DNA of 64,000 nt from Candidatus Moraniibacteriota bacterium (GTDB lineage Bacteria; Patescibacteriota; Minisyncoccia; Moranbacterales; UBA1568), in NCBI GenBank assembly GCA_963778555.1, contig CAVZUR010000005.1:97756-161755 (forward strand). Direction: 5' to 3'. A model generated the notes under the pieces. The model did not search any database. It was not told the origin of the DNA and worked only from the letters and a program-made list of their open reading frames with translations. Position 1 is the first letter of the stretch. Each line of letters opens with the position of its first letter. The position numbers were made by a program, and so were the translations under genes. Below are positions 4,601 to 54,354 of this stretch, in pieces.

Positions 4601-5629
4601 CGATTGAAGAAGAATATCATCCCGTTTGATAGTGTCCTGGATAATCTCGCCTCATTGACGCCCGTTACCTACAACTGGAGAAGTGATGAATTTCCGGATA
4701 AGCATTTCGGAGAAGCTGTGCAGCGCGGTCTGATTGCTCAGGATGTACAACGGGTATTTCCAGAGCTTGTGAAACAGGATGACGATGGCTATCTGCAGAT
4801 TGATTTTTCGAGCATTCAGTTCTATCTCTTGCAAGGTATCAAGGAAGAATACGCGTTGATTCAAGACCAATCAAACAGTATCGCCGCATTGTCTCTGGAG
4901 ACGACAGCTAGTATCACGACCTTGTCTGAACTCGAAGCAGCCGTTGAGGGACAGTTGATACTCGCGAGCGCGAACTTCACGACGCTGGCGGAAAAAGATG
5001 CCTTGATTGATACCAAACTGACAGAACATGATACGTACTTCGCCCGCGACCTGGCGCGGCTCGACGCAATTGATGCGCTGACGGCTCAGATGGCGCTCGA
5101 TCAGAACGCAGCCGCGGCCAACCTGGTGACGCTTCAGACTGAAATGACGGTTTTGACCGAGCAAGTCGGCACGCTCATGGAATTCTTCAACACGCTGGAC
5201 CTCGGCAATATGGTCGCGAAAGACGAGCTCGGCAATGTCGACCTGCTCGGCGGCACGCTCCGGGCCACTGCGCTCGCCACTGGCGGTATCACTATCGAAG
5301 TTGCCGATGAAGAGGCTCCGACCATTGGAACAGCGATGATCCTTCCAGTCGAGACGGACGCGGACGGCGATGGCAAAGATGATGAGACTGGTTCGGACGG
5401 CAAGAGTACGAGCGTCCTGACAAAAGCAATGATCCCGATGATCAACGGCTCACGCATCTTCACGAGCTTCAAGGGCAATCCGAACGCGTTTAGCTGGATC
5501 GAAAAGATCGTCACTGATGACGGGGAGTATGTCGGATTCAAGATCCGCGTCTCGGCGCCGGTCACGGAAAAGATCAAGGTCGACTGGTGGCTGATCGAGC
5601 AGAAGGATACGTTCTCGTCGAATCCATAA
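1481..5629 (+). CDS. Giant (>1380 aa) Thr/Gly/Ala-rich repetitive cell-surface protein (β-helix/fibre-like repeats) with peptidase S74-type intramolecular chaperone (auto-processing) domain and a coiled-coil-rich C-terminal region
   Basis: Uninterrupted 1382-aa ORF. Low-complexity T/G/A/S repeats. Tandem ~106-aa repeat (318 bp) at ~3153-3470 and 3471-3788. Motif block 'SSDERLKKNI...YNWRSDEF...GLIAQDVQRVFPELV...YLQIDFSSIQFYLLQGIKEEY' (~4590-4870) matches the tail-fibre/endosialidase C-terminal chaperone (Peptidase_S74) signature. Confidence 0.75.
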   Translation: MLNPPSRIQLASMECKSTSPTTHPLRETPKMRFGFRTRSRERHRQCGRSLLLLDNADTTATGTTIVTDAIAITNSGGSNFTNFLNTPTLDISAAGAITGATGITSSGNITFSSLTAGSVLFAGTSGILQQDNANFFWDDTNNRLGIGDTTPDGRFDFDLASTSTTAANEYGGNYTFTDTGVVTTGTDNTIGESVTVTRTGATGGTISTYGSLITATADTAGAGTSAIIGQYVTASGADTTYGFYANVTGTTSATSYGYLSNVTDATTGANTNYAEALQITDTGVVTAGTDITVGDYITVTRTGATGGTINTYGDEIIITTDNAGAGTSTATGELIDTGTAGTTNADTTYGLYVATEANAGTTAFGIYVDAGIQAGTEYAGIFMNGNVGVGDATPLSLFTVGNGDLFQVNSSGAIAAAAGVTSSGTITFSGLSTAGIVTNTAGGVLGTTTAVAATLGGTGFSSYAVGDLLYANTTTSLAKLADVAAGSCLISGGVGVAPTWGVCGAISADSLDFVDFQDTLDLDANLVLNQTTFTWDQSFTGTTTNGFTYTAASLTSGYAMDLNVNGAAVLTSGGALNIDGPTGAAAQAAGSLFKITTTGAVTGTDGSGNSSQISSATVTGTVSSISDAAVMTTTGDLLTLTANAATTTTGLQTINATGLTTGYAMDLNVNGAAVLTSGGAINIDGPTGAAAQASGALLNITTTGAVTGTAGIGNSLQVTSATVTGTVASITDAATMTTTGNLLTLTGNAATTATGLLTVNANGLTTGSAVNIASTATGLTTGGALQTITHSGSNAANIGSLLSLQNTGTASGNISLLIQHNATGTGNLAFRVNDIAGDTTPVVIDGTGQFGIGTAAPTTLFELYGTGSADAIATLTAPDATFDPILKYRTGATPAVQFSLGIDNTDSDKFKIFSGDGVGSGDEFVIDSNGVTTIANLNLGATTFDSDAGAIVWTDMPVTATTAAATVMSYSAQIDATNLMTMYSESNGTGGIQNTRVGILTTAPLDVLHVAGDVRVGTGTTGCVKDADATVLTGTCSSDERLKKNIIPFDSVLDNLASLTPVTYNWRSDEFPDKHFGEAVQRGLIAQDVQRVFPELVKQDDDGYLQIDFSSIQFYLLQGIKEEYALIQDQSNSIAALSLETTASITTLSELEAAVEGQLILASANFTTLAEKDALIDTKLTEHDTYFARDLARLDAIDALTAQMALDQNAAAANLVTLQTEMTVLTEQVGTLMEFFNTLDLGNMVAKDELGNVDLLGGTLRATALATGGITIEVADEEAPTIGTAMILPVETDADGDGKDDETGSDGKSTSVLTKAMIPMINGSRIFTSFKGNPNAFSWIEKIVTDDGEYVGFKIRVSAPVTEKIKVDWWLIEQKDTFSSNP
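4590..4870 (+). other. Peptidase S74 / intramolecular chaperone auto-processing domain within giant surface protein
   Basis: Conserved S74 chaperone-domain motifs (SDERLK, YNW, GLIAQDVQ, IDFSSIQFYLLQGIKE) read directly from the translation. Confidence 0.6.
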
Positions 5630-6015: not shown

Positions 6016-6576
6016 CTATTTCTGTTTAAAAAAATGACGCTTCAGGTGTTCTACATCATTGAGAGTGATCACTGTGGCCACTCGGACGTATGGTTCGGCG
6101 CCGTATAAGTGGACTAATTTCAAGATAGCCGACTCATACGGGTATGGGGAAACAAAGACGCTTTGTTGAAGTTTATAAAACTCCAATGTCTGGAGATGTT
6201 CACGCAGGACGTCTCGAAATGCTCGATTGGCTTCCGGAATATCGAAGAGAACCAGGCGCCACTTCTTATCCCACGCTTTCGGCTTTCTCAAATGGATAGA
6301 ATCACCGAAAAGGCTGAGTACTTGAGCTTCACGTTGACCCTCTTTGGTCAGCACTAAGCGGTACGAACCATCCGAAAGCTTCAATTCCCTAAAGAGTTTT
6401 TGGTGCGACAGCCGACGAAGAGAACGATTGAAACTTCGCTGGTCGATCTCCTTCCATCCGGCATGGGCGAGTCTGAGCGCTCTGAAATACTGAGCGGGGG
6501 ATTGAACTGCGCCGAGCGCCACCCCAGTCAAGAGCACAAGAAGAATTTTCTGCTGTACTGGACCGAATTTATACAT
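6016..6576 (-). CDS. PaaX-like winged-helix transcriptional regulator (Cas2-fold C-terminal domain)
   Basis: 186 aa. N-terminal wHTH-like region. C-terminal 'WDKKWRLVLFDIPEANRAFRDVLREHLQTLEFYKLQQSVFVSP' matches the PaaX-family core motif (W..V.FDIPE...R...R..L...GF..LQ.SV). Confidence 0.5.
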   Translation of the reverse strand: MYKFGPVQQKILLVLLTGVALGAVQSPAQYFRALRLAHAGWKEIDQRSFNRSLRRLSHQKLFRELKLSDGSYRLVLTKEGQREAQVLSLFGDSIHLRKPKAWDKKWRLVLFDIPEANRAFRDVLREHLQTLEFYKLQQSVFVSPYPYESAILKLVHLYGAEPYVRVATVITLNDVEHLKRHFFKQK

Positions 6577-7921: not shown

Positions 7922-8698
7922 CTATTTGTCAAGTAGCCCGAGATTATGTCGGATGACACTTCGAGTTTCCTCGAGACCGGCCGCGTAGAGGGCTGGATCA
8001 TTTCCCGGATACGCCCGGCCCCAATCAGTTGGGCTCATGTGTTCGCTTGCGAGGAGTGCGGTCTCTAGAGCCTTTCGAGCAGCTTCTTTTTCTCCAAGAT
8101 TGAGGAGCGCGGTACCATAAATGTTGTTCAGCCAGGGATTGCCGTGAGCCTGTCTGAGGCCGGCTGCTGCTGTGTCGCGAGTCTTTTCATACTCACCTAG
8201 CTTGAAGTAAATCCACGCCAAGTCGTTGTAGCCGGCCCAATTGAAGGAATCGCGTTTGATGAATTCGCTGAATCCCCAGATTGCGCTTTCATAGTCGCCT
8301 CTATATCCACTAATGAGCCCCTGCATATAGTAGGCCCGCTTGAATTCAGGATCTATACGGAGTACGGTGTCCATCTCAATCCGCGCCGATTCGAATCTTC
8401 CACTGATGAAATGGATGCGTCCGAGCTGGAAATGCGCTTCCAAAAAATCAGGATGTAATTCAATCGCTCTTGTGTAAGCAGACTCCGCTTTCTTAATGTC
8501 ATATGCTTCTCCATCCCCGAAATAGCTATCGCCGATTTTTAGAAACAGATCTGGATTGCTACGATTAACGAAAGTGGCAACCGTTTCCAACCCAAGACCG
8601 GGCCAGAAGGAATAGAGTTGCGGGATATGGAAACATGCGTAGGTACTGGAGAAAAGGGCAATAACAGTCCCAACCAACAGCACAGTGGAGGGCCTCAT
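7922..8698 (-). CDS. TPR-repeat protein with N-terminal membrane anchor
   Basis: Multiple TPR-like repeats (AYTRAIELHPDFLEAHFQLGRIHF..., RAYYMQGLISGYRGDYESAI..., YNDLAWIYFKLGEYEKT...). N-terminal hydrophobic helix. Confidence 0.7.
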   Translation of the reverse strand: MRPSTVLLVGTVIALFSSTYACFHIPQLYSFWPGLGLETVATFVNRSNPDLFLKIGDSYFGDGEAYDIKKAESAYTRAIELHPDFLEAHFQLGRIHFISGRFESARIEMDTVLRIDPEFKRAYYMQGLISGYRGDYESAIWGFSEFIKRDSFNWAGYNDLAWIYFKLGEYEKTRDTAAAGLRQAHGNPWLNNIYGTALLNLGEKEAARKALETALLASEHMSPTDWGRAYPGNDPALYAAGLEETRSVIRHNLGLLDK

Positions 8699-8807
8699 TT
8701 TGAGAGTCAGAGAAGTGATGGAATCCGTGATTTTATTCATGCATGATTCCAGTATAATATATCATGTTGAGATAGTATTTTTGCAGAAAAAACAGTTGTC
8801 GTTGTGT

Positions 8808-10229
8808 TCATGGGAACATATGCGGCAACGGATTCAGCTTCCACTCGGTGACACCTTTGGAAGCAGCGAATTCCTCCAAACGGTCGCTGTCGAAGGTGCC
8901 CTGGCACTCGAGGAGATAGAGGGGGAAAGCCTTCGGTACATAGACTTGGGCGATGTAGAACCCGAGCTTGGCTTGGATGGGATGCTTGGGGAAATAGGCA
9001 ATCGGGTAGTAGTCAGGGCCTCTTTTTCTCAGAACGGAGAGGCAGGCTTTCAGTTGGGTAGCATCATCGGTCGCTGAGGTGAGATCCTTTTGGCAGAGTT
9101 CCGCGTAGGAAACCTGCTTGCCGGAGAGGAACCACTGGAATTGCTGGATCTTTTCGGGACCGCGCCAGTAGAGTTGCCGTCCGATTTGACCGAGAACAGA
9201 AACGAATGGTTCGGATTGAGCATCCTTTTCCAGCTGCCGCTTATCACCCTCGTAATAAAACATTTCTGAGCTTATCACTATTTCTCTTAGAGAATGCCGT
9301 ATCGCTTGTTCGAATGTTGTCGCACTGGCGCCGCTCAGAACAATCTGAGGAGTCGCGCTCTTTGAGTTTAGGGCAGCAATAACGATAGACGGAATAGAGA
9401 GCGTTGTCACATCTACGATATGTAAAGACAGGCCGCATGATTCCAACGGGCGTATGATTTCCTGCATCTCCTCGGGGAGTGTTTCTACATCAATGATCCG
9501 CGGAGGAATCTGAGTGAGCCAGTGGACCAAGAATGCATCGCGCTCGATTGTTTCGAGGAGCCCACGCAGGAGAGCGCCATTTTTTGTGAAGTACCCGGCT
9601 GATCCGCTGGTCGTGGCGTTGACGAGAGGGGCTTCAGTGGAATAATTTTTGACGCACCATGAGGTCACTTGCCGCGGGATATACGTTTGTTCTTGCGTAA
9701 TGAGATTAATTCCACTCAGCCAATCCATCGGACGGGACGGGTCATGCTGGAGTTCCCGGTAATGCTCTCTTTGGATGTCCAAGAAGCGATGGTATTTCGG
9801 CGGGTAGAGTACTGGAAACTTTTTGAGCAGTTCGTTCGATGAAGCGATTAGTATGTCGGTATCCTTATTATACAAACCAGAAATGATGCGCTCAAGCATT
9901 TCGCCGATCGCTTTGGAAATAGCAGTCGCCCTATCTTTCGCAATCCCATGGCCGCTCACGCTCCGAAGATGTCCACGCACGACTACTTCTTTTTCCAGGG
10001 AATAAAAAAAGTATCCGGGAAAATGGAGACTTCTTTCTGCCATCGCATCGACGAGCCCTTTTTTTTTCAGATAAGTGTAAAGGGTTTCAGAGGCAGAGGT
10101 GACATCATCCGTGTGAGCAATATGCAGACTGTCCGCAAGCCAGGAATATCGGACGAATTGTTTTAATAAGCAAATCCGTATCCGATCGCCGATTCCCAGC
10201 GGTATTCGCCAGGGTCCGAACTTGTCCAT
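8808..10229 (-). CDS. YcaO-domain cyclodehydratase (TOMM/azoline-forming 'D' protein), paralogue 1
   Basis: 'TSGSAGYFTKNGALLRGLLETIERDAFLVHW' YcaO core. C-terminal Pro-rich 'NPLPHMFP' (PxPxP-type) motif typical of YcaO C-termini. ~474 aa from MDKFGPW. Confidence 0.8.
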   Translation of the reverse strand: MDKFGPWRIPLGIGDRIRICLLKQFVRYSWLADSLHIAHTDDVTSASETLYTYLKKKGLVDAMAERSLHFPGYFFYSLEKEVVVRGHLRSVSGHGIAKDRATAISKAIGEMLERIISGLYNKDTDILIASSNELLKKFPVLYPPKYHRFLDIQREHYRELQHDPSRPMDWLSGINLITQEQTYIPRQVTSWCVKNYSTEAPLVNATTSGSAGYFTKNGALLRGLLETIERDAFLVHWLTQIPPRIIDVETLPEEMQEIIRPLESCGLSLHIVDVTTLSIPSIVIAALNSKSATPQIVLSGASATTFEQAIRHSLREIVISSEMFYYEGDKRQLEKDAQSEPFVSVLGQIGRQLYWRGPEKIQQFQWFLSGKQVSYAELCQKDLTSATDDATQLKACLSVLRKRGPDYYPIAYFPKHPIQAKLGFYIAQVYVPKAFPLYLLECQGTFDSDRLEEFAASKGVTEWKLNPLPHMFP

Positions 10230-10349
10230 AATTGGTTTCTTTCGTTTGATTTCGTCTGGTCTAACCGAATGTACCAATATACAGAGTGATGTGGATAGTT
10301 TTACATGGAGATGTCATACAAGTACACCTACGTTTCTCCTGGTGTATTT

Positions 10350-10384
10350 TATCATGCATAAAAAAACAGGAGCCATGTGACAAC
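10350..10384 (-). terminator. Putative rho-independent terminator after secreted-protein gene
   Basis: Minus-strand reading ggagtcgtgttgtcacatggctcc followed by tgttttttt. Confidence 0.35.
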
Positions 10385-10425
10385 ACGACTCCTGGAATTT
10401 GCACCCTCAGCGTTTGAGGGCAGTC

Positions 10426-11241
10426 TCAATTACTTGCAGCGGCAGATTCCTTTTGGAAGACCGTGCTGTTTTGCCCATCACTCCCGCCATAACCGGCCCA
10501 CAGCTCATCGCCATGATTGGTGAAATAACATGTTCCACCCGCTCCCCCGCAGGGGAAAGCGAATTTCCCGTCCTTGATCTCTGCGGACTGGATCTTGCCG
10601 CTTGGTTTTTGCTGTGTGCCGTATATGAATTTGACCACACACTTCGCGTCGATTTCGCCGATCCAGAGCCACCGCTTGCCATAGCCCCAGTTTCCTGTCC
10701 AGCCACCGATGAAGGCGGCACAGGCTACTGGCACGTCGGCAGCCACCGGCTTGACCGAAAAGCCAGCTTCACGCTGAGGTTGCAAAGCCGCCAATTCTGT
10801 TTCGGCAAGTTTTCGGATGCTGACCGCCCGGGACTGTCCATTTGCGTCCGTGATAGTCCCGTTAAACGTGCCGTCTGGGTTTTGGGATGCTACGACCTTG
10901 CCCCCCAATCGGGTAATAAGCGATAACGTACGACCTTGAGCGGTCTCAATCATCTCTGCGCTAATCGGGAGCGGTTGCAGTCTCGGAAGACCGAGAGCAG
11001 CGTTGAGCGCGACTTTTCCAGTGTCGCCTTGTTTCGTTCCGCCAGAAAGCTGCAACGTCAGTGTTCGGTCGCTGCCGACGACCGTAATGAGCCATGAAGA
11101 GTTCAGATCGAATGGCAGCTGACTTGTCAGTGCCGCCAGAGTGATACTGTCGCTAGAGGCCTTCATCTGGGCGAAGCCAATGCTTGGCAGGCTGGAAAAA
11201 ACAGAGAAAAAAACCGAAAAGAGAATCGAAAGTGCCCGCAT
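10426..11241 (-). CDS. Secreted hypothetical protein (signal peptide) with Gly/Cys-rich C-terminal tail, embedded in the TOMM-like locus
   Basis: N-terminal 'MRALSILFSVFFSVFSSLPSIGFAQ' signal peptide. C-terminal '...FPCGGAGGTCYFTNHGDELWAGYGGSDGQ'. Confidence 0.55.
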   Translation of the reverse strand: MRALSILFSVFFSVFSSLPSIGFAQMKASSDSITLAALTSQLPFDLNSSWLITVVGSDRTLTLQLSGGTKQGDTGKVALNAALGLPRLQPLPISAEMIETAQGRTLSLITRLGGKVVASQNPDGTFNGTITDANGQSRAVSIRKLAETELAALQPQREAGFSVKPVAADVPVACAAFIGGWTGNWGYGKRWLWIGEIDAKCVVKFIYGTQQKPSGKIQSAEIKDGKFAFPCGGAGGTCYFTNHGDELWAGYGGSDGQNSTVFQKESAAASN

Positions 11242-11397
11242 GATAAACTACTCCTTGGTTGATTGGTAAGGGACAGCACCGCCACTATACCATATTTGCT
11301 ATATAAGTCAAATAGTAGTATTCCGTTTACGCATTGCTTTAAGTGCCGCTTTTTTTCTGCATTCTTCATTTACGACATATAATGGAAAGACCTCCGT

Positions 11398-12141
11398 ATG
11401 CATACATTTCTCTACAATTTTTTTCATCACGAGACCAATGATCGGACGGAAAAGGGCCTGGTGAGTATTCCGGCAGACAAGGGGCGCTGGCCGGAGTCAT
11501 GGAAAACGATAACGTGCAAACGGTATTCTCTGTTTCCGGAGGTTGAGCTTCCTGAAACGAGCGGGTCTTTGTTTGAGCAGCTCTTGCGAGAACGCAGATC
11601 GAGCGAAGGGCATATCGTGGGGAATATCCTCACTCTGCCCGTACTTGCCTATATCCTGCAGTGTGGGTATGGCCTGCAGGGCGGGAGCGAAGGAGATCAG
11701 AGGAAAGCGAACCGAACCGTTCCTTCCGGCGGGGGACGATATCCGCTCGAAGTGTATGTTTTTCTCTTCAAGCCGATTGGCACTTGCGTTTCGGGAATCT
11801 ATCATTACAGTGTGAAGCATCATTCCTTGGAACCAGTTGCGCTCATGCCATTCACGCTTGAAGATATTGGTTCTTTCGCACCGGAGCAGGCGTGGCTCCA
11901 GGATACGAACGGGATGATTTGCATCACGAGTGTGTTTCAGAGAACGGTTGAAAAATACGGCAGCCGCGGGTATCGCTACATCTTGCTGGAGGCTGGGCAT
12001 GCTGCTCAGAATATGCTGCTCGCCGGAACCGAAAAGGGCGTGAACATCATCCCGATTGGCGGCGTAGAGGCTGATAAAATAGAAAAAAAACTTGGCCTGA
12101 GCGGGGAAGAAGAAGGGGTCGTGTATACGCTCTTTTTATAA
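11398..12141 (+). CDS. SagB-type (McbC-like) FMN-dependent dehydrogenase of the nitroreductase superfamily (TOMM 'B' protein)
   Basis: 'GGRYPLEVYVFLFKP...SGIYHYSVKHHSLEPV...RGYRYILLEAGHAAQNMLLAGTEKGVNIIPIGG' are canonical SagB/nitroreductase motifs. Confidence 0.8.
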   Translation: MHTFLYNFFHHETNDRTEKGLVSIPADKGRWPESWKTITCKRYSLFPEVELPETSGSLFEQLLRERRSSEGHIVGNILTLPVLAYILQCGYGLQGGSEGDQRKANRTVPSGGGRYPLEVYVFLFKPIGTCVSGIYHYSVKHHSLEPVALMPFTLEDIGSFAPEQAWLQDTNGMICITSVFQRTVEKYGSRGYRYILLEAGHAAQNMLLAGTEKGVNIIPIGGVEADKIEKKLGLSGEEEGVVYTLFL

Positions 12142-12233
12142 TAAACCCTAGTATGCGGAGCGACTCCTCTTCAAAATTTTTCCATTGCTCGGGATACCTC
12201 TCCCTTAGGGAGTATGTGGAGGATATCGAGTCG

Positions 12234-13680
12234 ATGAGGCAGCATGGCCCGTGGCGGCTCCCGCTCGGCATCGGCGACCGGGTGCAGATTTTCTTTTTCT
12301 CCCTGATTCTGAAATACTCCTGGTTTTCTGATGCGTTGAGCATACGGTATCCCTATACGTGGAGCCCAGCGTATTCGGTGCTCATCGCCTATCTGAAAAG
12401 GTGTGGCGTAGTCGATGTGGTCCGGGAGCAGAATGCGAATCGCAGCGGATATTCCTTCTTCTCCCTTCAAAGGGGCATTTCCATAAATGAAAATATTCGG
12501 ACCATCGGCGGTCTGGGAGTCGACCAAGAGGTCTCGACGGCGTTTTCCAAAGCGATCGGCGAAATGCTTGAGCGCATCATTTCTGGTTTGTATAATAAGG
12601 ATACCGACATACTAATCGCTTCATCGAACGAACTGCTCAAAAAGTTTCCAGTACTCTACCCGCCGAAATACCATCGCTTCTTGGACATCCAAAGAGAGCA
12701 TTACCGGGAACTCCAGCATGACCCGTCCCGTCCGATGGATTGGCTGAGTGGAATTAATCTCATTACGCAAGAACAAACGTATATCCCGCGGCATATTGTT
12801 TCGTGGTTTGGGTTTGCCGAAGCGCGCGTGTTCAAAGACATTCTCCTGCATCCGACATCCAATGGCTGTGCCGGGTACTTTACGAAGACGGGTGCTGTTT
12901 TGCGAGGGCTGATCGAAGCAGTGCAACGGGACGCTTTTCTCGTCCATTGGCTCACGCAGATCGCCCCTGATCGCATCATCGAGGACACTCTGTCGCTAGA
13001 AATTCAGAAACAAGTCGGGGAATTCAAGGCGCGTGGAATCACCCTGCATATTCTCGATGTCACAGCTCTTTCTATCCCGTCCGTATCCATTGTGGCAATC
13101 AATGCTGAATCGGAAACTCCGCAGATTATTTTGAGCGGCGCAGAGCGGCGACATTTGAGCGGGCGGTGCAGGACGCACTCCGTGAAATGGTGCTGATGTC
13201 AGCGACTATGTTCTACCAAGGAGAAGCTAATAATAGAAAGAAAGAGCCTATGTTAGCAGAGCCGCAGCCATTCGTTTCTGATCTCAATGAGAAAACCAGG
13301 CAACTCTACTGGCGCGGTCCCGAAAAGATCCAGCAATTCCAGTGGTTCCTCTCCGGCAAGCAGGTTTCCTACGCGGAACTCTGCCAAAAGGATCTCACCT
13401 CAGCGACCGATGATGCTACCCAACTGAAAGCCTGCCTCTCCGTTCTGAGAAAAAGAGGCCCTGACTACTACCCGATTGCCTATTTCCCCAAGCATCCCAT
13501 CCAAGCCAAGCTCGGGTTCTACATCGCCCAAGTCTATGTACCGAAGGCTTTCCCCTCTATCTCCTCGAGTGCCAGGGCACCTTCGACAGCGACCGTTTGG
13601 AGGAATTCGCTGCTTCCAAAGGTGTCACCGAGTGGAAGCTGAATCCGTTGCCGCATATGTTTTCTTGATGAGCGATACAG
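12234..13680 (+). CDS. YcaO-domain cyclodehydratase paralogue 2, mosaic relative to paralogue 1, interrupted by two frameshifts (~13145 and C-homopolymer at ~13555-13560)
   Basis: ORFs 12153-13196 and 13166-13642 together align over full length to YcaO 1. Blocks 'KAIGEM...QTYIPR' and 'RQLYWRGPEKIQQ...VPKAFP' are identical in amino acid sequence (near-identical DNA, inverted), while the middle and N-terminal blocks are diverged. Copy 2 has CCCC where copy 1 has CCCCC at the shift site. Confidence 0.7.
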
Positions 13681-13777: not shown

Positions 13778-14470
13778 ATGTTTCAGAAAGTCAGGCGAGT
13801 TGCGAGCAGAAAACTCCTGTTTCTTGTTGGCGTATCTTTGGCCGGTATCCTTGGCATCCTGGGCAGTTATACGCGGACGAACTATTCGAAAAGCGGTTCG
13901 CTGGTTGTCCCAAAGGCGCAGGCGGATACCCCTCCCACTTGTGCTTCGTGCGGTTGCGCCTATACTGAGGACCAATGCGTTACATACTGGTCCTGTTTTC
14001 CGGCCGACACGCCTATCAGCACACCAGCCGGTAAGCGAGTCATACAGGAGCTGGCGGTCGGAGACAGCGTGCTTGGTTTCGACATTGAAACCGGCCGGAC
14101 CGGAGAATACCCGGTGACCAGAACCTTCAAACACGGCCGAAACGATGCGAATACCGTGTATTCTCCGCTGATTCAGATTACGCATGCAAAAGGATCGTTC
14201 CTCGCGACGGATAATCATTGGATCTATCGGCGCAATGGCCGGGTCGGGGAATACGCCAATTTTGACCGTGTCGGAACGCTTCAAGTCGGTGACATGCTGA
14301 CGACAGAAAGCGGCGAAGAGGTGGCGGTGACAGCGATCGAACCGGGGCCCGAGTATGATTTTGTGTACAATCTCGAGGTGGCGGAGGCCCATACGTATTT
14401 CGCTAGCGGTATCCGGGTACACAATAGCGGCAGTGGACCTGGTGGCTGTTGTGGCTCTTCAGGAAAATAA
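13778..14470 (+). CDS. Small secreted Cys/Gly/Ser-rich protein whose Cys-rich core is interrupted by a complete mini-intein-like Hint domain (13994-14425); candidate RiPP/TOMM precursor
   Basis: Signal/TM 'MFQKVRRVASRKLLFLVGVSLAGILGILG'. N-extein '...PPTCASCGCAYTEDQCVTYWS'. Hint blocks: A 'CFPADTPI', B 'GSFLATDNHWIY' (TxxH), F 'VYNLEVAEAHTYFA', G 'SGIRVHN' then +1 Ser. C-extein 'SGSGPGGCCGSSGK' then stop. Confidence 0.7.
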   Translation: MFQKVRRVASRKLLFLVGVSLAGILGILGSYTRTNYSKSGSLVVPKAQADTPPTCASCGCAYTEDQCVTYWSCFPADTPISTPAGKRVIQELAVGDSVLGFDIETGRTGEYPVTRTFKHGRNDANTVYSPLIQITHAKGSFLATDNHWIYRRNGRVGEYANFDRVGTLQVGDMLTTESGEEVAVTAIEPGPEYDFVYNLEVAEAHTYFASGIRVHNSGSGPGGCCGSSGK

Positions 14471-14534: not shown

Positions 14535-15761
14535 ATGGAAACTGAAGCCGATATCCGAACTCCCGCTGGAGACTCGAGGGAGAAAAATAAAAAGATTCGG
14601 TTGACCGGAAAAGTCGTTCTTGTTGTCATGCTAATAGTCGCCCTTGCATATGGGGCGTTGTATTTGTTCGAGAAGAATACCTGGTATAAATTGAGATCCG
14701 ATCGGACAATTTATACACCGGCCAATGATAACGCGTATACCGAAAGTCTCCTAAATAATAATCCGAAGCTATTGCAGGATTCGTTTGTGGCCGATGTCGA
14801 AAGCGGAGTGAATGATAAGTTTACCAAGTCAGATGCCTATTTCCTGACCCACCGGTACTTTGATAACGGCGGAAATGTCTACGAAATCTATGATTATGTA
14901 AACAGCCATCCGAGTCTGGAATTTCTCAAGGAAGCCGAAGAAATTTACCCGGCTATTTTTGATCAGCTACGGACCAAAACGCTTTCCCCGGTGCCATATT
15001 CCAGGCAATCTCTGTATGCAGTTCTGGCATATCTGGAAGTACTTGATAAGCACGGGTATGCGGATATCGCCGCTCTGGGCACGCTCGCTAATCAATATGC
15101 GAAGACGGCCTATTTCATAAAAAAGAGATCAGAAAACGATCCTGCTGGTGGCTTGGATCCGGCTCCAATGATACGGCAAGCGACGGAAAAAGCGATTGTG
15201 TTCGAATTGAAAACCAGAGATGTGATGCTGGGAATGTCTAAGGGTAATCAGTCTCTCGTGAAAAGTATAGCGAGTCGACCGAAATCGCTTGATTCGAGAT
15301 CGCCTCTGCGGAAGAATTTTTCGAAGGAAATAACAGCCCAATCATTGATTACCGGACTTAATCAGTATGCCGCCTGTCTTCGATATTTGGAGGTCACGGG
15401 AATTGCCATCTCGATCATCGATTCACCCGTGCAAGCGAATGATGTTTTTTCCTTCAGCATGTTATTTGCAGAAACCTATGTTCCAGAAATGGAGGTATTT
15501 ACGTCGCTCCTCAATGCCTCGACGCTCGCTTTGGTGAGTCCGGAGAGTGCTGATGCTATCAAGACTGCTCTCCAACCGATTCTGGAGTACGATCTTACTC
15601 AAGAATTGGGGATAATTCGCCTTCTCTTTGAGGCGAAGGACGACAAATTCGGCGGCTGGGATATATATGGAAAAAGGAATGCCATAATGCTGGCCAATAT
15701 CGTTCCTGAGTTCAAGGCATGGCTTATTGCGGGAGGGTGGGAAGAACCTGATTTTCAGTAG
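14535..15761 (+). CDS. Hypothetical membrane-anchored protein (single N-terminal TM)
   Basis: 408-aa ORF. 'VVLVVMLIVALAYGALYLF' TM helix. No recognisable catalytic motifs. Confidence 0.5.
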   Translation: METEADIRTPAGDSREKNKKIRLTGKVVLVVMLIVALAYGALYLFEKNTWYKLRSDRTIYTPANDNAYTESLLNNNPKLLQDSFVADVESGVNDKFTKSDAYFLTHRYFDNGGNVYEIYDYVNSHPSLEFLKEAEEIYPAIFDQLRTKTLSPVPYSRQSLYAVLAYLEVLDKHGYADIAALGTLANQYAKTAYFIKKRSENDPAGGLDPAPMIRQATEKAIVFELKTRDVMLGMSKGNQSLVKSIASRPKSLDSRSPLRKNFSKEITAQSLITGLNQYAACLRYLEVTGIAISIIDSPVQANDVFSFSMLFAETYVPEMEVFTSLLNASTLALVSPESADAIKTALQPILEYDLTQELGIIRLLFEAKDDKFGGWDIYGKRNAIMLANIVPEFKAWLIAGGWEEPDFQ

Positions 15762-15875: not shown

Positions 15876-16571
15876 ATGAAGACGGTTTTGATTATCGGAG
15901 GGTCTTCGGGGATTGGAAGCGCCTGCGTACGTACTTTCGAACAATCAGGGTGGAATGTTTTTTCCACCTTCTATTCAAATAAAAAAACAACCAGCAAAGG
16001 ATCTTCCGTCACCTGGAGCTTCCTAGACATAAAGAATATTCCAGCTGGTTTTTTTGATACCCTGCCAAAAATCGATGCGGTGCTAATTTGTGCTGCCAAA
16101 AATGTAAGCCAGGACCTGAATAATTTACAGAAGAGTGACACAGAGGAAATTGTAAACACGAATCTCATCGGACAGATTGAGTTCATCAAACTCCTCAAGG
16201 ATAAAAAGGGTGCGGAGCTGTCCTCGATAGTACTTTTCGGCTCGACCGTGCCAATGACAGGTTTTAAAAGAAGAATCGCTTACGGTATAACGAAAGCCGC
16301 GATAGAGGGCCTTACGAAAACGCTGGCAATGGAATTTTCCCCCAATACCCGCGTGAATTGCATTGTACCGGGATATATCAAGACAGGTTTGTATTTCAAA
16401 AATAGCGCTATCAGTGATACGGATAGAGCAAGGAAAATCCTTTTAGGGCGGTTGGGCGACCCGGAAGAGGTTGCAAAACTTGCCTTTTTCCTATCTTCGG
16501 AAAACGCTTCCTATATAAACGGAGAATCGATTGGGATTAATGGCGGTTTTAACTATGAGTATGAAGTCTAG
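15876..16571 (+). CDS. Short-chain dehydrogenase/reductase (SDR family)
   Basis: 'TVLIIGGSSGIGSAC' Rossmann motif and 'NASYINGESIGINGG' SDR C-terminal signature. Confidence 0.75.
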   Translation: MKTVLIIGGSSGIGSACVRTFEQSGWNVFSTFYSNKKTTSKGSSVTWSFLDIKNIPAGFFDTLPKIDAVLICAAKNVSQDLNNLQKSDTEEIVNTNLIGQIEFIKLLKDKKGAELSSIVLFGSTVPMTGFKRRIAYGITKAAIEGLTKTLAMEFSPNTRVNCIVPGYIKTGLYFKNSAISDTDRARKILLGRLGDPEEVAKLAFFLSSENASYINGESIGINGGFNYEYEV

Positions 16572-17247
16572 CAATGGTAAGTTTGCGTGTATAATTCTTG
16601 CTGCAGGCAAGTCCGAAAGGTTTAATGCGAATAAACTCTTTGCGACCCTTACCAAAGGACCCCTTCTTTTTATGGTTGTCGATTCCATTTTATCTTTTAA
16701 GTTGCTTGGTAAGTTAGTGATTGTCGCAGCGAAGGGGGATTTTGATCGAATTCAGAAAAGATATGGACGGAATCAAGAAGTGAACGTCGTTGTCGGTGGA
16801 ATAAACCGAACGGAAAGCACGCTACGGGGCCTGCATGTTGTCGCACAGGGGGGATACGAATATGTCTATGTTCACGACGGATCTCGCCGACTCTTTACGA
16901 GAAATGATTTTATCCGGCTCAAGAGAGAGTTGCTGTCAAAGAATCTGGATGGAGTTGTCCAATATGTCAAGATATACGATTCGCTCATGAGTTTCGATGG
17001 GAGTATTGAAAACAACAATAGTTATCTCGACAAAACGAGGGTAGTGCAATTAAAGACACCCCACGTTTACAAAGTGGGTTCAATCTTAAAATGTCTGACT
17101 CAGTATAAACCTCAAGTCAGGAGAGAATTGGAGAACGTTGAAATCATGTCTTTGTACGGGAAAGAAATAGGATTTATCGATGGTTCTATCGCCAATATAA
17201 AAATTACTTACAAAAGTGATTTACGGGTCATTAAAAAGCTGTTGTGA
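16531..17247 (+). CDS. Nucleotidyltransferase of the IspD/TarI family (CDP-alcohol-forming cytidylyltransferase)
   Basis: 'FACIILAAGKSERF' N-terminal signature of MEP cytidylyltransferase / ribitol-5-P cytidylyltransferase family. Confidence 0.65.
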   Translation: MGLMAVLTMSMKSSNGKFACIILAAGKSERFNANKLFATLTKGPLLFMVVDSILSFKLLGKLVIVAAKGDFDRIQKRYGRNQEVNVVVGGINRTESTLRGLHVVAQGGYEYVYVHDGSRRLFTRNDFIRLKRELLSKNLDGVVQYVKIYDSLMSFDGSIENNNSYLDKTRVVQLKTPHVYKVGSILKCLTQYKPQVRRELENVEIMSLYGKEIGFIDGSIANIKITYKSDLRVIKKLL

Positions 17248-19388
17248 AAAAGATATCTTTCGTCGTCTATTATCCGTATCAGTGGTTTATCTATCGGAAT
17301 ATCTATAGACAGATACCGGCTGACAAGCGGGAAGTCATCGTTGATCTGAGCGATAATCCGGGACTTCAGGATGAGGAAGTAAGGATGAGCATCGCTTCTT
17401 TGCTTCAACGAGAGAGCGTTCCGTTTCGGGTCCTCGAGAAAGTGATTTGTTTCAATCGGAAACTGCTTCAGGATTTTTTCACTGATGTCGAGGTCATCGT
17501 ATCTTGCTGGGAAAACGGTTGCGTGTCGAACAATGCCCTGCGACATATTAAAAAAGTAAACGTGACTTACGGAATAGCCAAAGAATTGACGATGCTCCGG
17601 CCAACGCGTTCGATCTACGATGTCATATTGGCGTATGGCGCGCGTGATCAGCGGTATTTCGAATTGCTCACGAAATCCATAGCCATCGGTAATCCGCGAC
17701 TGGACAATTATTACCGTGGCATAGCTGATGATTCCATTCGGGAAAAACTGTCAAGATATTTCAAAGATAAAAAAAAGAAAACCATACTGTATGTTCCGAC
17801 TCACGGAGATCTCGGGTCATTTCATGAAATGTTACCTACGTTCGCACGGATATCGAGACAATATAATATCATTTTTAAGCCACACTATTATACTTTGAGG
17901 GAGGAGAAAGAGATTATAGAAAAGTACCGGCAGATAGAGTCGCTTTTGGTCATCGATGACACGTGGGACACGATTGAAGTTATGTCCGTAAGCGATATCA
18001 TCGTGAGCGATAACTCGAGCGCTATTTTCGATGCGATGCAGATCGATAAGCCGTTAATCGTATGTGATTTTCTGGATAATCAATTTATAGATACTATTCA
18101 TAAAAAAATCCGTCTTGCAAAAAAAGGAACGGGAATACTTACGGCGCTGACGTATTCAGACAGTTTGGAACAGGAGATAAAAAGAGGAGGTCTAGCAATG
18201 ACCATAAAAAAACCGAATGATATTGATGACCTTCTGGAAAACATAGATGACACAGACGGCCGGTATCGGGACTTTCGGAAAGAAATCGTTGCTGCGAATT
18301 TCAAATATGTTGATGGTCATTCGTCTGAAAGAGCTGTCGAGATCATTCTGCGAATATACGGCACGAAGAGGACGCATGTGCCGGGTATCCTGCACCATGC
18401 ATACCTCGCGTATAATAACCGAGCGTATCAATGGAGTATCGAATCTGAACACAAGGAAACTGTCCTTACGACTGTCCCGAGTACGACCATTGTCTGGATT
18501 TTCTGCGAGTTGCGTCAGAAGAATGATGAGATTATATGCACCATCTACTCAGCATTGAACGAAAAGGAGGTCACCACAGTCTGTGTTTCGGGGAGTGTCG
18601 GAAAAGATGTGCGTGACACTCTTTCACGGAGTGAATTCTCTGACAGGATTATATTTTTTGAAAATCATGCAGACGGGATAAATCTTGTTTATTCGCGGCT
18701 CGGCATCTGCGATAACCTTCTTGTGGTGAAGGCGAATACTATTATCAAAGACTTGAATACGATATGTAACTTCAAAGTATCCTGTAAACGAGACATGATC
18801 TTTTTTTCTGAAAATATTGTTCCTTTTCCAGAAAATTGGGTAAGCCGACTCTTTTATCAGTTGAAATATGAGATGCTTGGCTTTCGGAGTCTGGCAATGA
18901 ATACGCTGCTCTCTATCCCGTATGAGTTGATCTGTGCTTCCGAAAAGTGCGCCGTTCTCATCGATAGTAAGGCCCTGCTTGCTGTTTCACCACGGCCGGT
19001 TGTAGACACTTTTATCTTCGAGTGGGTTCTTTCGTCTTTTATTAACATTGATTCATTGAAAAGTCAGGGTCGCGATTTTTATGGTACGCTCTGCGATGAT
19101 TATATCCTTATGCCGAATTTCTTCATGAATGGTAGCCGGTCGGCCAATGCGGATATTATTAACAAACTTGTGGCAAAAGGACTGATATTGAATGCTTTAG
19201 GTATCCCCATAAAGCGGTGGCCGGATAAAAAAATCGGTAAACTGCTGTGGAAAATCGCGACTGGCGACTTCAGGCGCTATCAACTCTTGAAATTGATACT
19301 GTTGAAGGTGCTCACTGTGAAAAAGCAAGTATTTCTCAGCAAAGCCCGTTCTTTTTTGGAGAAGGTTTACGCAGATGACGCCCCATAG
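17244..19388 (+). CDS. CDP-glycerol/ribitol-phosphate glycerophosphotransferase (TagF/TagB family) with extra C-terminal domain
   Basis: 'IIFKPHYYT...VSDIIVSDNSSAIFDAMQIDKPLIVCDF' are TagF-family catalytic motifs. 714 aa. Confidence 0.65.
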   Translation: MKKISFVVYYPYQWFIYRNIYRQIPADKREVIVDLSDNPGLQDEEVRMSIASLLQRESVPFRVLEKVICFNRKLLQDFFTDVEVIVSCWENGCVSNNALRHIKKVNVTYGIAKELTMLRPTRSIYDVILAYGARDQRYFELLTKSIAIGNPRLDNYYRGIADDSIREKLSRYFKDKKKKTILYVPTHGDLGSFHEMLPTFARISRQYNIIFKPHYYTLREEKEIIEKYRQIESLLVIDDTWDTIEVMSVSDIIVSDNSSAIFDAMQIDKPLIVCDFLDNQFIDTIHKKIRLAKKGTGILTALTYSDSLEQEIKRGGLAMTIKKPNDIDDLLENIDDTDGRYRDFRKEIVAANFKYVDGHSSERAVEIILRIYGTKRTHVPGILHHAYLAYNNRAYQWSIESEHKETVLTTVPSTTIVWIFCELRQKNDEIICTIYSALNEKEVTTVCVSGSVGKDVRDTLSRSEFSDRIIFFENHADGINLVYSRLGICDNLLVVKANTIIKDLNTICNFKVSCKRDMIFFSENIVPFPENWVSRLFYQLKYEMLGFRSLAMNTLLSIPYELICASEKCAVLIDSKALLAVSPRPVVDTFIFEWVLSSFINIDSLKSQGRDFYGTLCDDYILMPNFFMNGSRSANADIINKLVAKGLILNALGIPIKRWPDKKIGKLLWKIATGDFRRYQLLKLILLKVLTVKKQVFLSKARSFLEKVYADDAP

Positions 19389-19454
19389 TTGTTGAAAGGA
19401 TGACCTAAGGCAGGACAACCAGACTTGAGAATTATGTGCTAGAATGGTCGTAAT

Positions 19455-20888
19455 TTGGCTGAAATGCCATCTCAGAATACATCAATTCCCTCAGATACGA
19501 TAACCGCACGCATCCCTATGGAGATGAAAGGAGTGATAAAGGATAATCAAAATCCTCGGGCCTCGATAGGCATTCTTTGCTCCTTCCTTCCGTTTTTTTT
19601 CGTCTTCGAAAAGGTCTATAAGAATTTGGAAAATGTTGAATTTATTCTTGATTTTACGACTCTCCCCATTGGAATTCCCTATCCAGAGTGGTATAAGGAA
19701 CGAATGCGAAAGTATTTTACAAATCAAAATGTTTATTTTCGCGATCTTGAAGCAAGCAATTTTACCCCGGCAGAGTTTTTTTCGAAATACCACACATTGG
19801 TAAGTGGATCTTTTGATGGTCTGATGGCGCATAAGTGCAATCAAACCAAAAAAAAAGTGCGAGTGATGTATGGCCTCGCCAAAGACCTCAATAGTTTTTC
19901 TCTCACAAATACGCATTTCGACCTGGTAGCATGTCCCTCGGAGTATGTCGCTAAGAGAATGCAAGATCTATGCGGTGTTCGTGTCGCGGTGACCGGTGAT
20001 CCCAAATATGATCGCTACATTCTTGATGCCTCGCCAACACCGCCAAGTATAGAGGAAATTCTAAAAGCGAGTCAGGGCAAGAAGATCGTCTTATTTGCTC
20101 CGACATGGGGGAATCTTTCATCTGAGAAAAGAATCCTCCCCGTTCTTGTGGAGCTATCTCAAAAATATACTGTTTTCTACAAGCCGCATCACATGACAAT
20201 GATATCCCAGTCAGAGGTCATTAAAGACTTCGACAGGATTTCGGATATTCACATAATCTGGGACGATGTGAGTTTCATGGATATGTTGAAGAAAGTCGAT
20301 GTGGTAATCACGGACAATAGCAGCGCTATATTTGACACCATCATTGTTAAAAAACCTCTAGTCCTTATTGATATCACGGTTGAGGGAAAATTTCCTTATG
20401 CAAAATCCCCATTCTATTCTTTTCGGGGGGGGAAATTCGGTGGTGTTTCTACATCACTTGAGAGTCTCGAGCAGGTAGTGAAGGTAGAGGGCCGGGAAAT
20501 TGCTCCAGTAGTACGGCTTTCAAAAAAATTGATTGAGGATACGTTGCCACCACTTGCGACTGCTATCGAAGCGGCAATTGAATCAGCCGGGGGGTTAATT
20601 TATTTGGAACGGCAAAAGCAGGTATTGAATGATTATTCGGGAGTGATTGACGGAAAAGCGGGGGAGCGCATTGCAAGTGAAATCCAATATATGGTCGATA
20701 ATTACGTAGAAGATTCCAAAAGCGCGCTTGAACCATATGTGTATGACTTTCAGCATAAAGTACGCGAGGAGGATCGGGACGTATTTGATTGGGAAAACCA
20801 GGATAGGTTGGATGAACAAAAGATATTGAACATACGGCGGTTACCAATGGTTGAAAAGGTTAAAAAAATCATAGAATTATTCTATTAG
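19455..20888 (+). CDS. Second TagF-family CDP-alcohol phosphotransferase
   Basis: 'FYKPHHMT...VDVVITDNSSAIFDTIIVKKPLVLID' TagF signature. Confidence 0.65.
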   Translation: MAEMPSQNTSIPSDTITARIPMEMKGVIKDNQNPRASIGILCSFLPFFFVFEKVYKNLENVEFILDFTTLPIGIPYPEWYKERMRKYFTNQNVYFRDLEASNFTPAEFFSKYHTLVSGSFDGLMAHKCNQTKKKVRVMYGLAKDLNSFSLTNTHFDLVACPSEYVAKRMQDLCGVRVAVTGDPKYDRYILDASPTPPSIEEILKASQGKKIVLFAPTWGNLSSEKRILPVLVELSQKYTVFYKPHHMTMISQSEVIKDFDRISDIHIIWDDVSFMDMLKKVDVVITDNSSAIFDTIIVKKPLVLIDITVEGKFPYAKSPFYSFRGGKFGGVSTSLESLEQVVKVEGREIAPVVRLSKKLIEDTLPPLATAIEAAIESAGGLIYLERQKQVLNDYSGVIDGKAGERIASEIQYMVDNYVEDSKSALEPYVYDFQHKVREEDRDVFDWENQDRLDEQKILNIRRLPMVEKVKKIIELFY

Positions 20889-46061: not shown

Positions 46062-46136
46062 TGGTGCCCCGAGAGAGAATCGAACTCCCATCCAGACCTT
46101 AGAAGAGTCCTGCTTTATCCATTAAGCTATCGGGGC
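46062..46136 (-). tRNA. tRNA-Arg (anticodon TCT), CCA-encoded
   Basis: rc: GCCCCGATAGCTTAATGGATAAAGCAGGACTCTTCTAAGGTCTGGATGGGAGTTCGATTCTCTCTCGGGGCACCA. Cloverleaf folds by eye; anticodon loop CTTCTAA. Confidence 0.8.
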
Positions 46137-46226
46137 GTATTCTTGTGGAAAAGAATCCTGAGAAAATTCTTGCTCCATCCATTGAGCCGGAGGGATATGA
46201 CACGAAAGAGTATCAAATATCCACAG

Positions 46227-46299
46227 GGGTGACTAGAGGGAATCGGACCCTCGTTCACGGTACCACAAACCGTTGTCTTACCATTAGACGATAGCCACC
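46227..46299 (-). tRNA. tRNA-His (anticodon GTG)
   Basis: rc: GGTGGCTATCGTCTAATGGTAAGACAACGGTTTGTGGTACCGTGAACGAGGGTCCGATTCCCTCTAGTCACCC. Anticodon stem ACGGT/ACCGT, loop TTGTGGT. Confidence 0.75.
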
Positions 46300-46341
46300 A
46301 CTCTAGATACTTGATGGTCGTGAAACTTGGAAATTGGGAGG

Positions 46342-46414
46342 TGGGTGCGGGGGGAATCGAACCCTCGACCGTTGGCTTAAGAGGCCACTGCTCTACCAAC
46401 TGAGCTACGCACCC
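46342..46414 (-). tRNA. tRNA-Lys (anticodon CTT)
   Basis: rc: GGGTGCGTAGCTCAGTTGGTAGAGCAGTGGCCTCTTAAGCCAACGGTCGAGGGTTCGATTCCCCCCGCACCCA. Perfect 7-bp acceptor. Confidence 0.8.
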
Positions 46415-54279: not shown

Positions 54280-54354
54280 TGGTAGCCCCAAGGGGAGTCG
54301 AACCCCTCTTACCAGGATGAAAACCTGGCGTCCTAACCGATAGACGATGGGGCC
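54280..54354 (-). tRNA. tRNA-Glu (anticodon TTC), CCA-encoded
   Basis: rc: GGCCCCATCGTCTATCGGTTAGGACGCCAGGTTTTCATCCTGGTAAGAGGGGTTCGACTCCCCTTGGGGCTACCA. Confidence 0.8.

Follow-up and report, generated by a model that had tools for sequence, protein, structure and literature searches.

Introduction

Can the precursor of a peptide that is ribosomally synthesized and modified post-translationally (RiPP) carry, within its core, a protein domain that removes itself and rejoins what it had separated? This question is raised by a 64,000-nucleotide stretch of DNA from a Candidatus Moraniibacteriota bacterium (assembly GCA_963778555.1, contig CAVZUR010000005.1, positions 97,756 to 161,755 of the forward strand), which we refer to as the window and whose own numbering is used below. 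A gene at 13778..14470 on the plus strand encodes a protein in which a Hint domain separates two short Cys- and Gly-rich segments, next to genes for a YcaO cyclodehydratase and a SagB-type dehydrogenase. Inteins and bacterial intein-like (BIL) domains are known from replication and repair enzymes, polymorphic toxins, and a polyubiquitin locus of a ciliate. RiPP precursors have been viewed as simple leader-core peptides that are matured by separate enzymes.

On balance and with moderate confidence, we read the gene as a member of a Patescibacteria-wide family of RiPP precursors of the thiazole/oxazole-modified microcin (TOMM) or linear azol(in)e-containing peptide (LAP) kind, with a core interrupted by a Hint domain of the BIL/PT-HINT type that would excise itself with ligation of the flanking halves. 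An earlier reading made from the letters of the DNA alone (the sequence-only reading) had called such a combination undescribed, and our literature work agrees with it. Full-text searches, within an incomplete coverage of the literature, returned no description of a natural RiPP precursor that contains a Hint or intein domain, and a review of RiPP leader removal and leader proteases makes no mention of inteins.

The interrupted precursor and its uninterrupted counterparts

The open reading frame (ORF) is ATG-initiated and gives a 230-residue protein of five parts, as read directly from the sequence. They include the following:

13778..13924, plus strand: leader, M1-A49, with a basic N-terminus, a hydrophobic helix, and conserved motifs
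13925..13993, plus strand: N-extein, D50-S72, the first part of the core, 23 residues, Cys-rich, 'DTPPTCASCGCAYTEDQCVTYWS'
13994..14425, plus strand: Hint domain, C73-N216, 144 residues, with Cys1, T144-x-x-H147, and H215-N216
14426..14470, plus strand: C-extein, S217-K230, the second part of the core, with the stop codon; a 14-residue Gly/Cys/Ser tail, 'SGSGPGGCCGSSGK'

In the leader, five Arg/Lys residues precede the hydrophobic stretch L13-Y31, and an AlphaFold2 (AF2) prediction places a helix at residues 2-35. The leader carries the motifs 'YSKxxSLvvP' (in the family form, YSKxxSLxxPxAxAD) and 'AxA|D'; the conserved juxtamembrane segment ends in 'KAQAD' (A49, D50), and AxA|D is a putative leader cleavage site. 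The N-extein has the motif C-x2-CGC-x-[YW]T-x2-QC-x2-Y[WY], and in the C-extein the string 'GGCCGSSGK' is nearly invariant among close homologues. The Cys1 codon, TGT, occupies 13994-13996, His215-Asn216 occupy 14420-14425, the +1 residue Ser217 occupies 14426-14428, and the codon of Lys230 (14465-14467) is followed by the stop codon (14468-14470). This ORF reading bears out the signal or transmembrane segment, the Cys-rich N-extein, the +1 Ser, and the Gly/Cys/Ser C-extein of the sequence-only reading. A protein identical to that of the window was assembled independently from another run (locus L008), and the interrupted precursor is a recurrent arrangement under selection and not an assembly accident.

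The gene lies in a cassette with the order SagB-YcaO-[precursor]-X, and a second YcaO gene is found nearby:

11398..12141, plus strand: SagB-type flavin mononucleotide (FMN) dehydrogenase (azoline to azole); TIGR03605, 108 bits against a cut-off of 78.4; Pfam Nitroreductase
12153..13668, plus strand: YcaO-2, a cyclodehydratase paralogue directly upstream of the precursor; Pfam YcaO PF02624, E 4e-27, for its first ORF
14535..15761, plus strand: protein X, 408 residues, membrane-anchored; an all-alpha helical-repeat model at a predicted local distance difference test (pLDDT) score of 90.6, with an N-terminal transmembrane helix
8808..10277, minus strand: YcaO-1, a second and intact cyclodehydratase paralogue; PF02624, E 4e-38; TIGR03604, 150 bits, below its cut-off of 219

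For YcaO, the highest-ranking NCBIfam model was TIGR03604 (SagD type), at a score under its cut-off, and protein X gave no match to a known family.

The same cassette occurs without a Hint domain. In five Hint-less loci (L043-45 and L048/49), it holds an ORF of 64-90 residues, which in four of the five occupies the exact slot of the Hint gene. The order is SagB-YcaO-[small ORF]-X in L044 and L045, and the exception is L043, with one copy of X ahead of the small ORF and another after it. The small ORFs of L043-45 (64-88 residues) have a basic N-terminus, a hydrophobic helix, and 'YSKxxSφφxPTAxAD', as in the window leader, followed by a microcin-B17-like core of Gly, Cys, and Ser (for example, 'GGGGGGDGCGGCSGAGG'). 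The leader is kept in all Hint-bearing homologues as well as in Hint-less precursors of 64-131 residues. When the window N-extein alone was used as a phmmer query against 1.84 billion representatives, 17 proteins were returned, 12 of which are short precursors.

Four Hint-less precursors (P0254, P0255, P0258, and P0259) show the window's Cys motif running straight into a G..GCC tail. The relevant part of one of them is as follows:

P0254, Hint-less, Cys motif and then Gly/Cys tail: '...RTNYSKSSSLIAPNVRAD VVVCGWCGCPYTNLQCDNYA TFGDGDGCCGDAS...'

P0254 is encoded in the order SagB-YcaO-P0254-X. When the two window exteins were joined in silico and compared with it, residues 1-84 of 86 were aligned at 48% identity (E 1e-24) with no gap at the junction, and P0255 gives a similar alignment. 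The 'G..GCC' segment of uninterrupted precursors has its collinear counterpart in the window C-extein, and in what is otherwise an ordinary precursor the Hint domain falls exactly where 'QCxxY[YW]x' meets 'G..GCC'. Because the joined exteins align end to end with a Hint-less precursor, the Hint domain interrupts a TOMM/LAP precursor within its core. Homology and collinearity with the 64-90-residue uninterrupted precursors in the same SagB-YcaO-[precursor]-X slot extend over the leader and both exteins, which supports the proposal of the sequence-only reading that a Hint domain splits a TOMM-like core next to YcaO.

Both conditions occur within single core subtypes. The CxxCGC subtype includes the Hint-bearing window protein and P0002-9 alongside the Hint-less P0254, P0255, P0258, and P0259, and the CDLT subtype includes the Hint-bearing P0010 and P0262 alongside the Hint-less P0256, P0257, and P0265. 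In a neighbour-joining tree of YcaO, the proteins of Hint-less L048 and Hint-bearing L016 form a pair (64% bootstrap); this tree is poorly resolved at depth (bootstraps of 1-16%) and only the L016/L048 pairing is used, which lends weak support to a patchy presence of the Hint domain. Neither NCBIfam nor Pfam holds a curated family for the short precursors or their leader. Two Hint-less proteins are longer than the others: P0266 (225 residues) has a hydrophobic or helical extension of about 110 residues past its Gly/Cys core, and P0259 (131 residues) has extra C-terminal sequence past the core that may be read-through.

A YcaO gene lies directly upstream of the Hint gene in 12/12 loci with upstream DNA (the window, L001, L005, L007, L010-13, L016, L017, L046, and L047), so that the architecture which the sequence-only reading had suggested seeking in relatives does recur. 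The upstream gene is an orthologue of YcaO-2 in L007, L016, L010-13, and L017, and of YcaO-1 in L046 and L047. SagB is found upstream of YcaO in every locus with enough DNA, except L046. A homologue of X directly follows the Hint gene in all Hint loci with downstream DNA, and X stands directly after the precursor in every such locus, Hint-bearing or not, but L043, where copies of X flank the precursor; X is duplicated in L011, L013, L043, and L044. The linked families exceed the Hint family roughly tenfold in size (127 clusters in the YcaO clade and 134 in the X family, versus 13), and members of the YcaO clade and the X family share many contigs. Named hosts of homologous loci are Patescibacteria of the candidate phyla radiation (CPR), namely Moraniibacteriota, Kaiserbacteria, and Paceibacterota; the others are metagenome-assembled genomes with doubtful labels.

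These observations bear on the suggestion that the protein is not a RiPP precursor at all, but a membrane-anchored polymorphic-toxin-like or surface protein that lies beside YcaO and SagB by chance, with the true substrate encoded elsewhere. PT-HINT domains are typical of polymorphic toxins, the more distant Hint matches, which have no YcaO in their vicinity, are either RHS/YD toxins or giant phage-tail-like proteins, and the downstream genes are of a cell-envelope, teichoic-acid-like kind. However, the four-gene block is conserved while the genes further out vary, no toxin domain is recognized past the Hint domain (only a Gly-, Cys-, Ser-, and Asp-rich stretch of 2-73 residues follows it), and no second precursor-like ORF was found in the window or in other Hint loci. 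Since homologous short precursors hold the same slot and the joined exteins align with them, this suggestion is already contradicted, and we regard it as scarcely credible.

Identity and conservation of the Hint domain

The domain matches the Pfam model PT-HINT (PF07591) above its curated threshold (E 1.1e-14, 55.3 bits against a cut-off of 27.7) and the NCBIfam model TIGR01443, intein_Cterm (intein C-terminal splicing region), at 25.3 bits against a cut-off of 15.6. The Pfam models Hint_2, Hint, and Intein_splicing match more weakly, the last with 16 bits, which is under its cut-off of 35.8. A precomputed PF07591 assignment is present in 13/13 homologues. A phmmer search of the PDB returned the Hint domain of 8w20 (from a 1368-residue 'intein C-terminal splicing domain-containing protein'), the Tetrahymena BIL2 structures 6y75 and 6tmm, and 2lwy from C. 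thermocellum. Hidden Markov model (HMM) matches above threshold together with sequence matches in the PDB mean that the Hint identity is not due to chance.

An AF2 model of the protein, built from a 13-sequence alignment with a mean pLDDT of 55, was used for fold search only. With this model as the query, Foldseek ranked 2lwy first in the PDB (E 1.5e-9, 26% identity), followed by 6tmm and 6y75 and then by the mini-inteins gp41-1, DnaB, and RecA, and returned inteins and BIL domains at a probability of 1.0. By HMM and fold, the domain is a relative of BIL and PT-HINT domains rather than a canonical intein. The sequence-only reading had leaned toward the latter; its list of class-1 residues holds for the window protein, but the best HMM and fold matches lie with PT-HINT and BIL domains and the +1 residue is not kept family-wide. 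Its description of a complete Hint domain of about 144 residues, with splicing blocks A, B, F, and G and no endonuclease, is confirmed by PT-HINT, TIGR01443, and the limits C73-N216. No homing endonuclease or remnant of one is present in these 144 residues, a size that leaves no room for it. The domain also differs from the Hedgehog type (Hog), which has a sterol-recognition region at its C-terminus and no C-terminal Asn cleavage; here an invariant His-Asn closes the domain and a short Gly/Cys tail comes after it, and the Hedgehog structure 1at0 ranked only 30th in the fold search.

C73, T144, H147, H215, and N216 are invariant in the 15/15 full-length sequences aligned, which share 45-80% identity; P0012, which is truncated at its N-terminus and without the Cys1 region, falls outside this set. 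No full-length homologue is without Cys1 and no homologue at all is without His-Asn, whereas loss of either had been named beforehand as the result that would speak against the idea. Judged from these residues, the domain keeps everything predicted to be needed for the N-S acyl shift (Cys1 and TxxH) and for Asn cyclization (His-Asn). Between the window and L046, the Hint domain has a dN/dS of 0.08 at a dS of about 1, and it is under strong purifying selection.

The Hint family and the fate of the two core halves

A search of 5.8 billion proteins yielded only 13 clusters of full-length Hint relatives (45-80% identity), and further homologues were added by genome and metagenome scans. The position of the Hint domain relative to the core differs among them:

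P0011 and subfamily 2 (L010-13, L017): Hint domain ahead of the entire core
Types A and B: Hint domain in mid-core
P0013: Hint domain after the core, with a C-extein of merely 'KY'

In subfamily 2 (L010:3771-4619, L011:9935-10840, L012, L013:2134-2949, and L017), the N-extein is without Cys and the +1 residue is Arg. The tail of 66-73 residues, rich in Gly, Asp, and Cys, opens with a second copy of the leader-end motif, 'FFIPTASADD' ('RNGGFFIPTASADD...'), and the C-extein aligns to residues 32-88 of Hint-less precursors. These proteins look as if a whole mini-precursor came after the Hint domain.

For the window precursor, we infer splicing, heterocyclization, and export in the following manner. 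After translation, the Hint domain would form a thioester at Ser72-Cys73, and cyclization of Asn216 would excise it while the two core halves are joined. The joining would proceed via the +1 Ser217 in the fashion of a class-1 intein, and members without a +1 nucleophile would instead use aminolysis of the BIL type. The product would be a contiguous leader-core peptide, '...CASCGCAYTEDQCVTYWS-SGSGPGGCCGSSGK'. As expected from family knowledge, cytoplasmic YcaO and SagB would turn Cys, Ser, and Thr of the core into azol(in)es, and the Sec-signal-like leader would direct export and be removed near AxA|D.

Ligation is favored because the two halves of the core have remained conserved and keep their collinearity with uninterrupted precursors, because the same kind of product results whatever the insertion point, and because the window protein has the full class-1 set of Cys1, TxxH, His-Asn, and +1 Ser. 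It is also compatible with the reported behavior of BIL domains, which give mostly cleaved products, splice efficiently once a +1 nucleophile is provided, and are capable of ligation 'without nucleophilic side chains' (PMC7664689).

Several observations weigh against this account. The closest relatives in sequence and fold are BIL and PT-HINT domains, which are reported to yield mostly cleavage products, and the AF2 model is weak, so that no geometry is read from it. The +1 residue varies across the family, being Ser (11), Thr (2), Tyr (2), Asp, Gly, Lys, or, in subfamily 2, Arg. The insertion point is not fixed among lineages; to our knowledge, a shifting insertion point has not been reported for classical inteins. 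The leader resembles an N-in signal anchor, which would place the Hint domain and the core outside the cell and leave YcaO and SagB in the cytoplasm, a mismatch of topology that is common to the Hint-less precursors. Signal peptidase I was considered for AxA|D, and the site lies about 18 residues past the hydrophobic segment, farther than usual. No E1-like/RiPP recognition element (RRE) partner (C protein) was recognized in the neighboring ORFs or in the 130-residue N-terminal extensions of YcaO. Finally, the sequence-only reading was right to place the gene immediately 3' of YcaO-2, but in the assembly the frame of YcaO-2 is broken twice (near 13145-13165 and at 13549-13555). At the second break stands a run of C4 where the otherwise identical YcaO-1 copy has C5, and the breaks are either sequencing or assembly errors or the marks of a real pseudogene.

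The main rival, and a serious one given that the +1 residue varies across the family and that BIL domains are the nearest structures, is that the domain is an autoprotease of the BIL/PT-HINT type that only cleaves and never ligates, with thioester hydrolysis and/or Asn cyclization detaching the pieces. In subfamily 2 and P0011, a Gly/Cys-rich tail would be freed from the leader, which makes the domain a self-cleaving leader peptidase; in P0013, a leader-core would be freed from a follower domain; and the window protein would give two separate short peptides. The best Pfam model is indeed that of the pretoxin Hint domain, whose presumed role is the release of C-terminal toxins. In subfamily 2, the tail has a 'FFIPTASAD' of its own and aligns with Hint-less precursors over their residues 32-88, so that once released it could be processed as a precursor in its own right, and a +1 residue of Tyr, Asp, Gly, Lys, or Arg in several members points the same way, as do the top fold matches to BIL domains, which 'produce predominantly cleaved products' (PMC7664689). 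Yet the conserved and collinear core halves of the window type are hard to explain as separate peptides, the tail of 12-14 residues has no leader of its own, and the +1 residue is Ser or Thr in 13/16 members of subfamily 1, the window included. Under cleavage alone, the different insertion points would also require the domain to act differently from lineage to lineage, whereas ligation gives one kind of product. We therefore prefer ligation and hold exclusive cleavage to be unlikely, if well worth bearing in mind.

A further feature of the C-extein suggests another outcome. Exactly one Lys is present per C-extein in 20/20 complete Hint-bearing proteins; it is terminal in 19/20, the other being P0013 ('KY'), where it is at +1. 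Among the Hint-less precursors, none of 16 has a terminal Lys and none of 16 has a Lys in the Gly/Cys/Ser core region. This Hint-specific terminal Lys may be an acyl acceptor of the Hint thioester. In such a case, the epsilon-amine of the C-terminal Lys would attack the Cys1 thioester, Asn cyclization would free the Hint domain, and the N-terminal core part would be joined to Lys230 in a branched product. By analogy, the Hint domain would be a biosynthetic device encoded in the precursor itself, giving an isopeptide-branched azole peptide without ligase or ATP, and it may react only after export, when it can fold. A variable +1 residue is what would be expected if that residue is not the nucleophile, and the second-closest solved homologue and closest eukaryotic one, BUBL BIL2 of Tetrahymena (6tmm/6y75), is reported to form an isopeptide bond between the C-terminus of its N-extein and a Lys of its C-extein (PMC8616854). 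However, the Lys evidence is a correlation over sequences that are not phylogenetically independent and represent about five lineages. In addition, a branched product would not be collinear with the uninterrupted precursors, canonical transesterification at the +1 Ser should compete, and a terminal Lys could instead serve charge, protease trimming, or export. We consider this outcome quite improbable for the window precursor and continue to favor ligation of the two core halves in line.

Other features of the locus and the window

Two further genes recur beside the cassette:

7922..8740, minus strand: tetratricopeptide repeat (TPR) protein; Pfam TPR families
10426..11241, minus strand: U271, encoded between the two YcaO genes and predicted to be secreted; neither Pfam nor NCBIfam gave a match

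TPR homologues flank the cassette in L010, L011, L014, L017, and L043-45, and U271 has homologues in L016, upstream of SagB, and in L046, upstream of the YcaO1-like gene. No ABC (ATP-binding cassette) exporter or leader protease was recognized. Upstream of SagB in the three type-C Hint-less loci (L043:1565-3223, L044:2688-4349, and L045:3516-5171), a protein of about 550 residues fuses a phosphoribosyltransferase-like part to a PQQ/BamB-like beta-propeller. Its gene adjoins SagB in L043 and L045, with a cupin gene in between in L044, and has no counterpart next to the window cassette. This fusion might be the missing scaffold or partner protein.

The two YcaO genes share an inverted repeat in their 3' 365 nucleotides, with arms that differ only in one C5/C4 homopolymer:

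8808..9178: left arm, 3' end of YcaO-1
13299..13668: right arm, 3' end of YcaO-2

The segment between the arms spans 9179-13298. Eight other contigs or assemblies end 30-240 nucleotides upstream of the Hint gene, and a contig assembled at k=141 retains exactly 141 nucleotides of YcaO; such contig ends are the expected effect of the YcaO inverted repeat on short-read assemblies. In the closest relative, represented by two independent contigs (L046 and L047), a U271-YcaO1-like unit stands directly upstream of Hint-X, which is the arrangement expected if the segment between the repeats of the window were flipped. It is possible that the cassette is invertible and that inversion may swap which YcaO 5' part, and whether SagB, joins the precursor operon.

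Elsewhere in the window, a 1382-residue protein (1481-5629, plus strand) has a Peptidase_S74 domain, the endosialidase intramolecular chaperone typical of self-cleaving phage tail-spike and fibre proteins, and a small protein at 6016-6576 (minus strand) has a PaaX central, Cas2-like domain. Downstream of the cassette, 15876-20888 (plus strand) encodes a short-chain dehydrogenase/reductase (SDR), an IspD-like cytidylyltransferase, and two CDP-glycerol glycerophosphotransferase-like proteins, a set of the teichoic-acid type that is also found downstream of the cassette in L001, L003, L004, and L005. Six tRNA genes (Arg-tct, His, Lys-ctt, Glu, Arg-ccg, and Arg-gcg) lie at 46062-46414, 54280-54354, 63033-63105, and 63658-63731 on the minus strand. 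An Rfam scan of the window gave no family besides tRNA above the gathering threshold and nothing that bears on the Hint precursor.

Significance of an interrupted RiPP precursor

A Hint domain that appears catalytically intact by its residues and is under selection within a TOMM/LAP core would be a new host for Hint domains and would link two fields. Matched interrupted and uninterrupted alleles at one locus offer a natural comparison of a neutral parasite with a maturation device, and the possible roles of such a device include timed ligation or release, branch formation, and a pro-toxin lock. The analysis also uncovers an undescribed family of TOMM precursors in Patescibacteria (CPR) with a Sec-signal-like leader and about 130 YcaO clusters. 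With regard to biotechnology, the domain could supply a compact self-excising module for Gly/Cys-rich RiPP contexts. If the terminal Lys were the acceptor, the precursor would encode a new ligation chemistry for RiPPs, and this would be the first natural Hint chemistry to build a small-molecule-like product in bacteria.

Comparison with known systems

Among LAP systems, microcin B17 and its relatives (McbBCD, SagBCD) share with the window cluster a YcaO and a SagB/McbC dehydrogenase that adjoin a precursor with a leader and a Gly/Cys/Ser core. The window cluster differs in that an E1-like/RRE partner, an ABC exporter, and a leader protease are not recognized, that the leader resembles a Sec signal anchor with AxA|D, and that the core is interrupted by a Hint domain. 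By the predicted identity of its genes, the cluster has the YcaO, SagB, and precursor of a TOMM/LAP system and lacks a recognizable C protein.

The pretoxin Hint domains (PF07591) of RHS/YD, CDI, and MafB toxins are alike in that they occur in exported proteins, ahead of a variable C-terminal 'payload'. Unlike in these polymorphic toxins, the N-terminal flank here is a leader and Cys motif of 72 residues, with no repeat-rich delivery region and no folded toxin/immunity pair, and the polymorphic-toxin architecture fails because there is no toxin domain. In place of a toxin, the payload is a Gly/Cys/Ser/Asp peptide of 12-73 residues, and the true PT-HINT toxins that turned up in the same scan lack a neighboring YcaO.

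Class-1 mini-inteins such as gp41-1, DnaB, and RecA have the same Hint fold, the Cys1, TxxH, His-Asn, and +1 Ser of the window protein, and hosts that also exist uninterrupted with collinear flanks. Here, by contrast, the Intein_splicing match is below threshold, the +1 residue is unconserved, the insertion point shifts, and there is no homing endonuclease; the host is a small, hypervariable, exported peptide and not a conserved replication or repair enzyme.

BUBL BIL2 of Tetrahymena thermophila (6TMM/6Y75) is the second-best match in both sequence and fold, and a Lys in the C-extein is common to both. However, it is a eukaryotic domain with ubiquitin-like flanks, whereas the Hint domain of the window lies between Cys/Gly-rich core halves and any use of its Lys is putative.

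The A-type BIL domain of C. thermocellum (2LWY) resembles the window domain in its size of about 140 residues, its lack of an endonuclease, its Cys1 and TxxH, and its C-terminal His-Asn. Like the Hint family described here, it tolerates a non-nucleophilic +1 residue and sits in secreted or variable hosts, and its reported activities are cleavage and, whether or not a +1 nucleophile is present, ligation (PMC7664689). What sets the Hint family apart from the A-type BIL domain is a host that is a RiPP precursor of about 85 residues with uninterrupted homologues at the same locus, which is an intein-like behavior, together with a Ser or Thr at +1 in most close members and a genetic link to YcaO and SagB.

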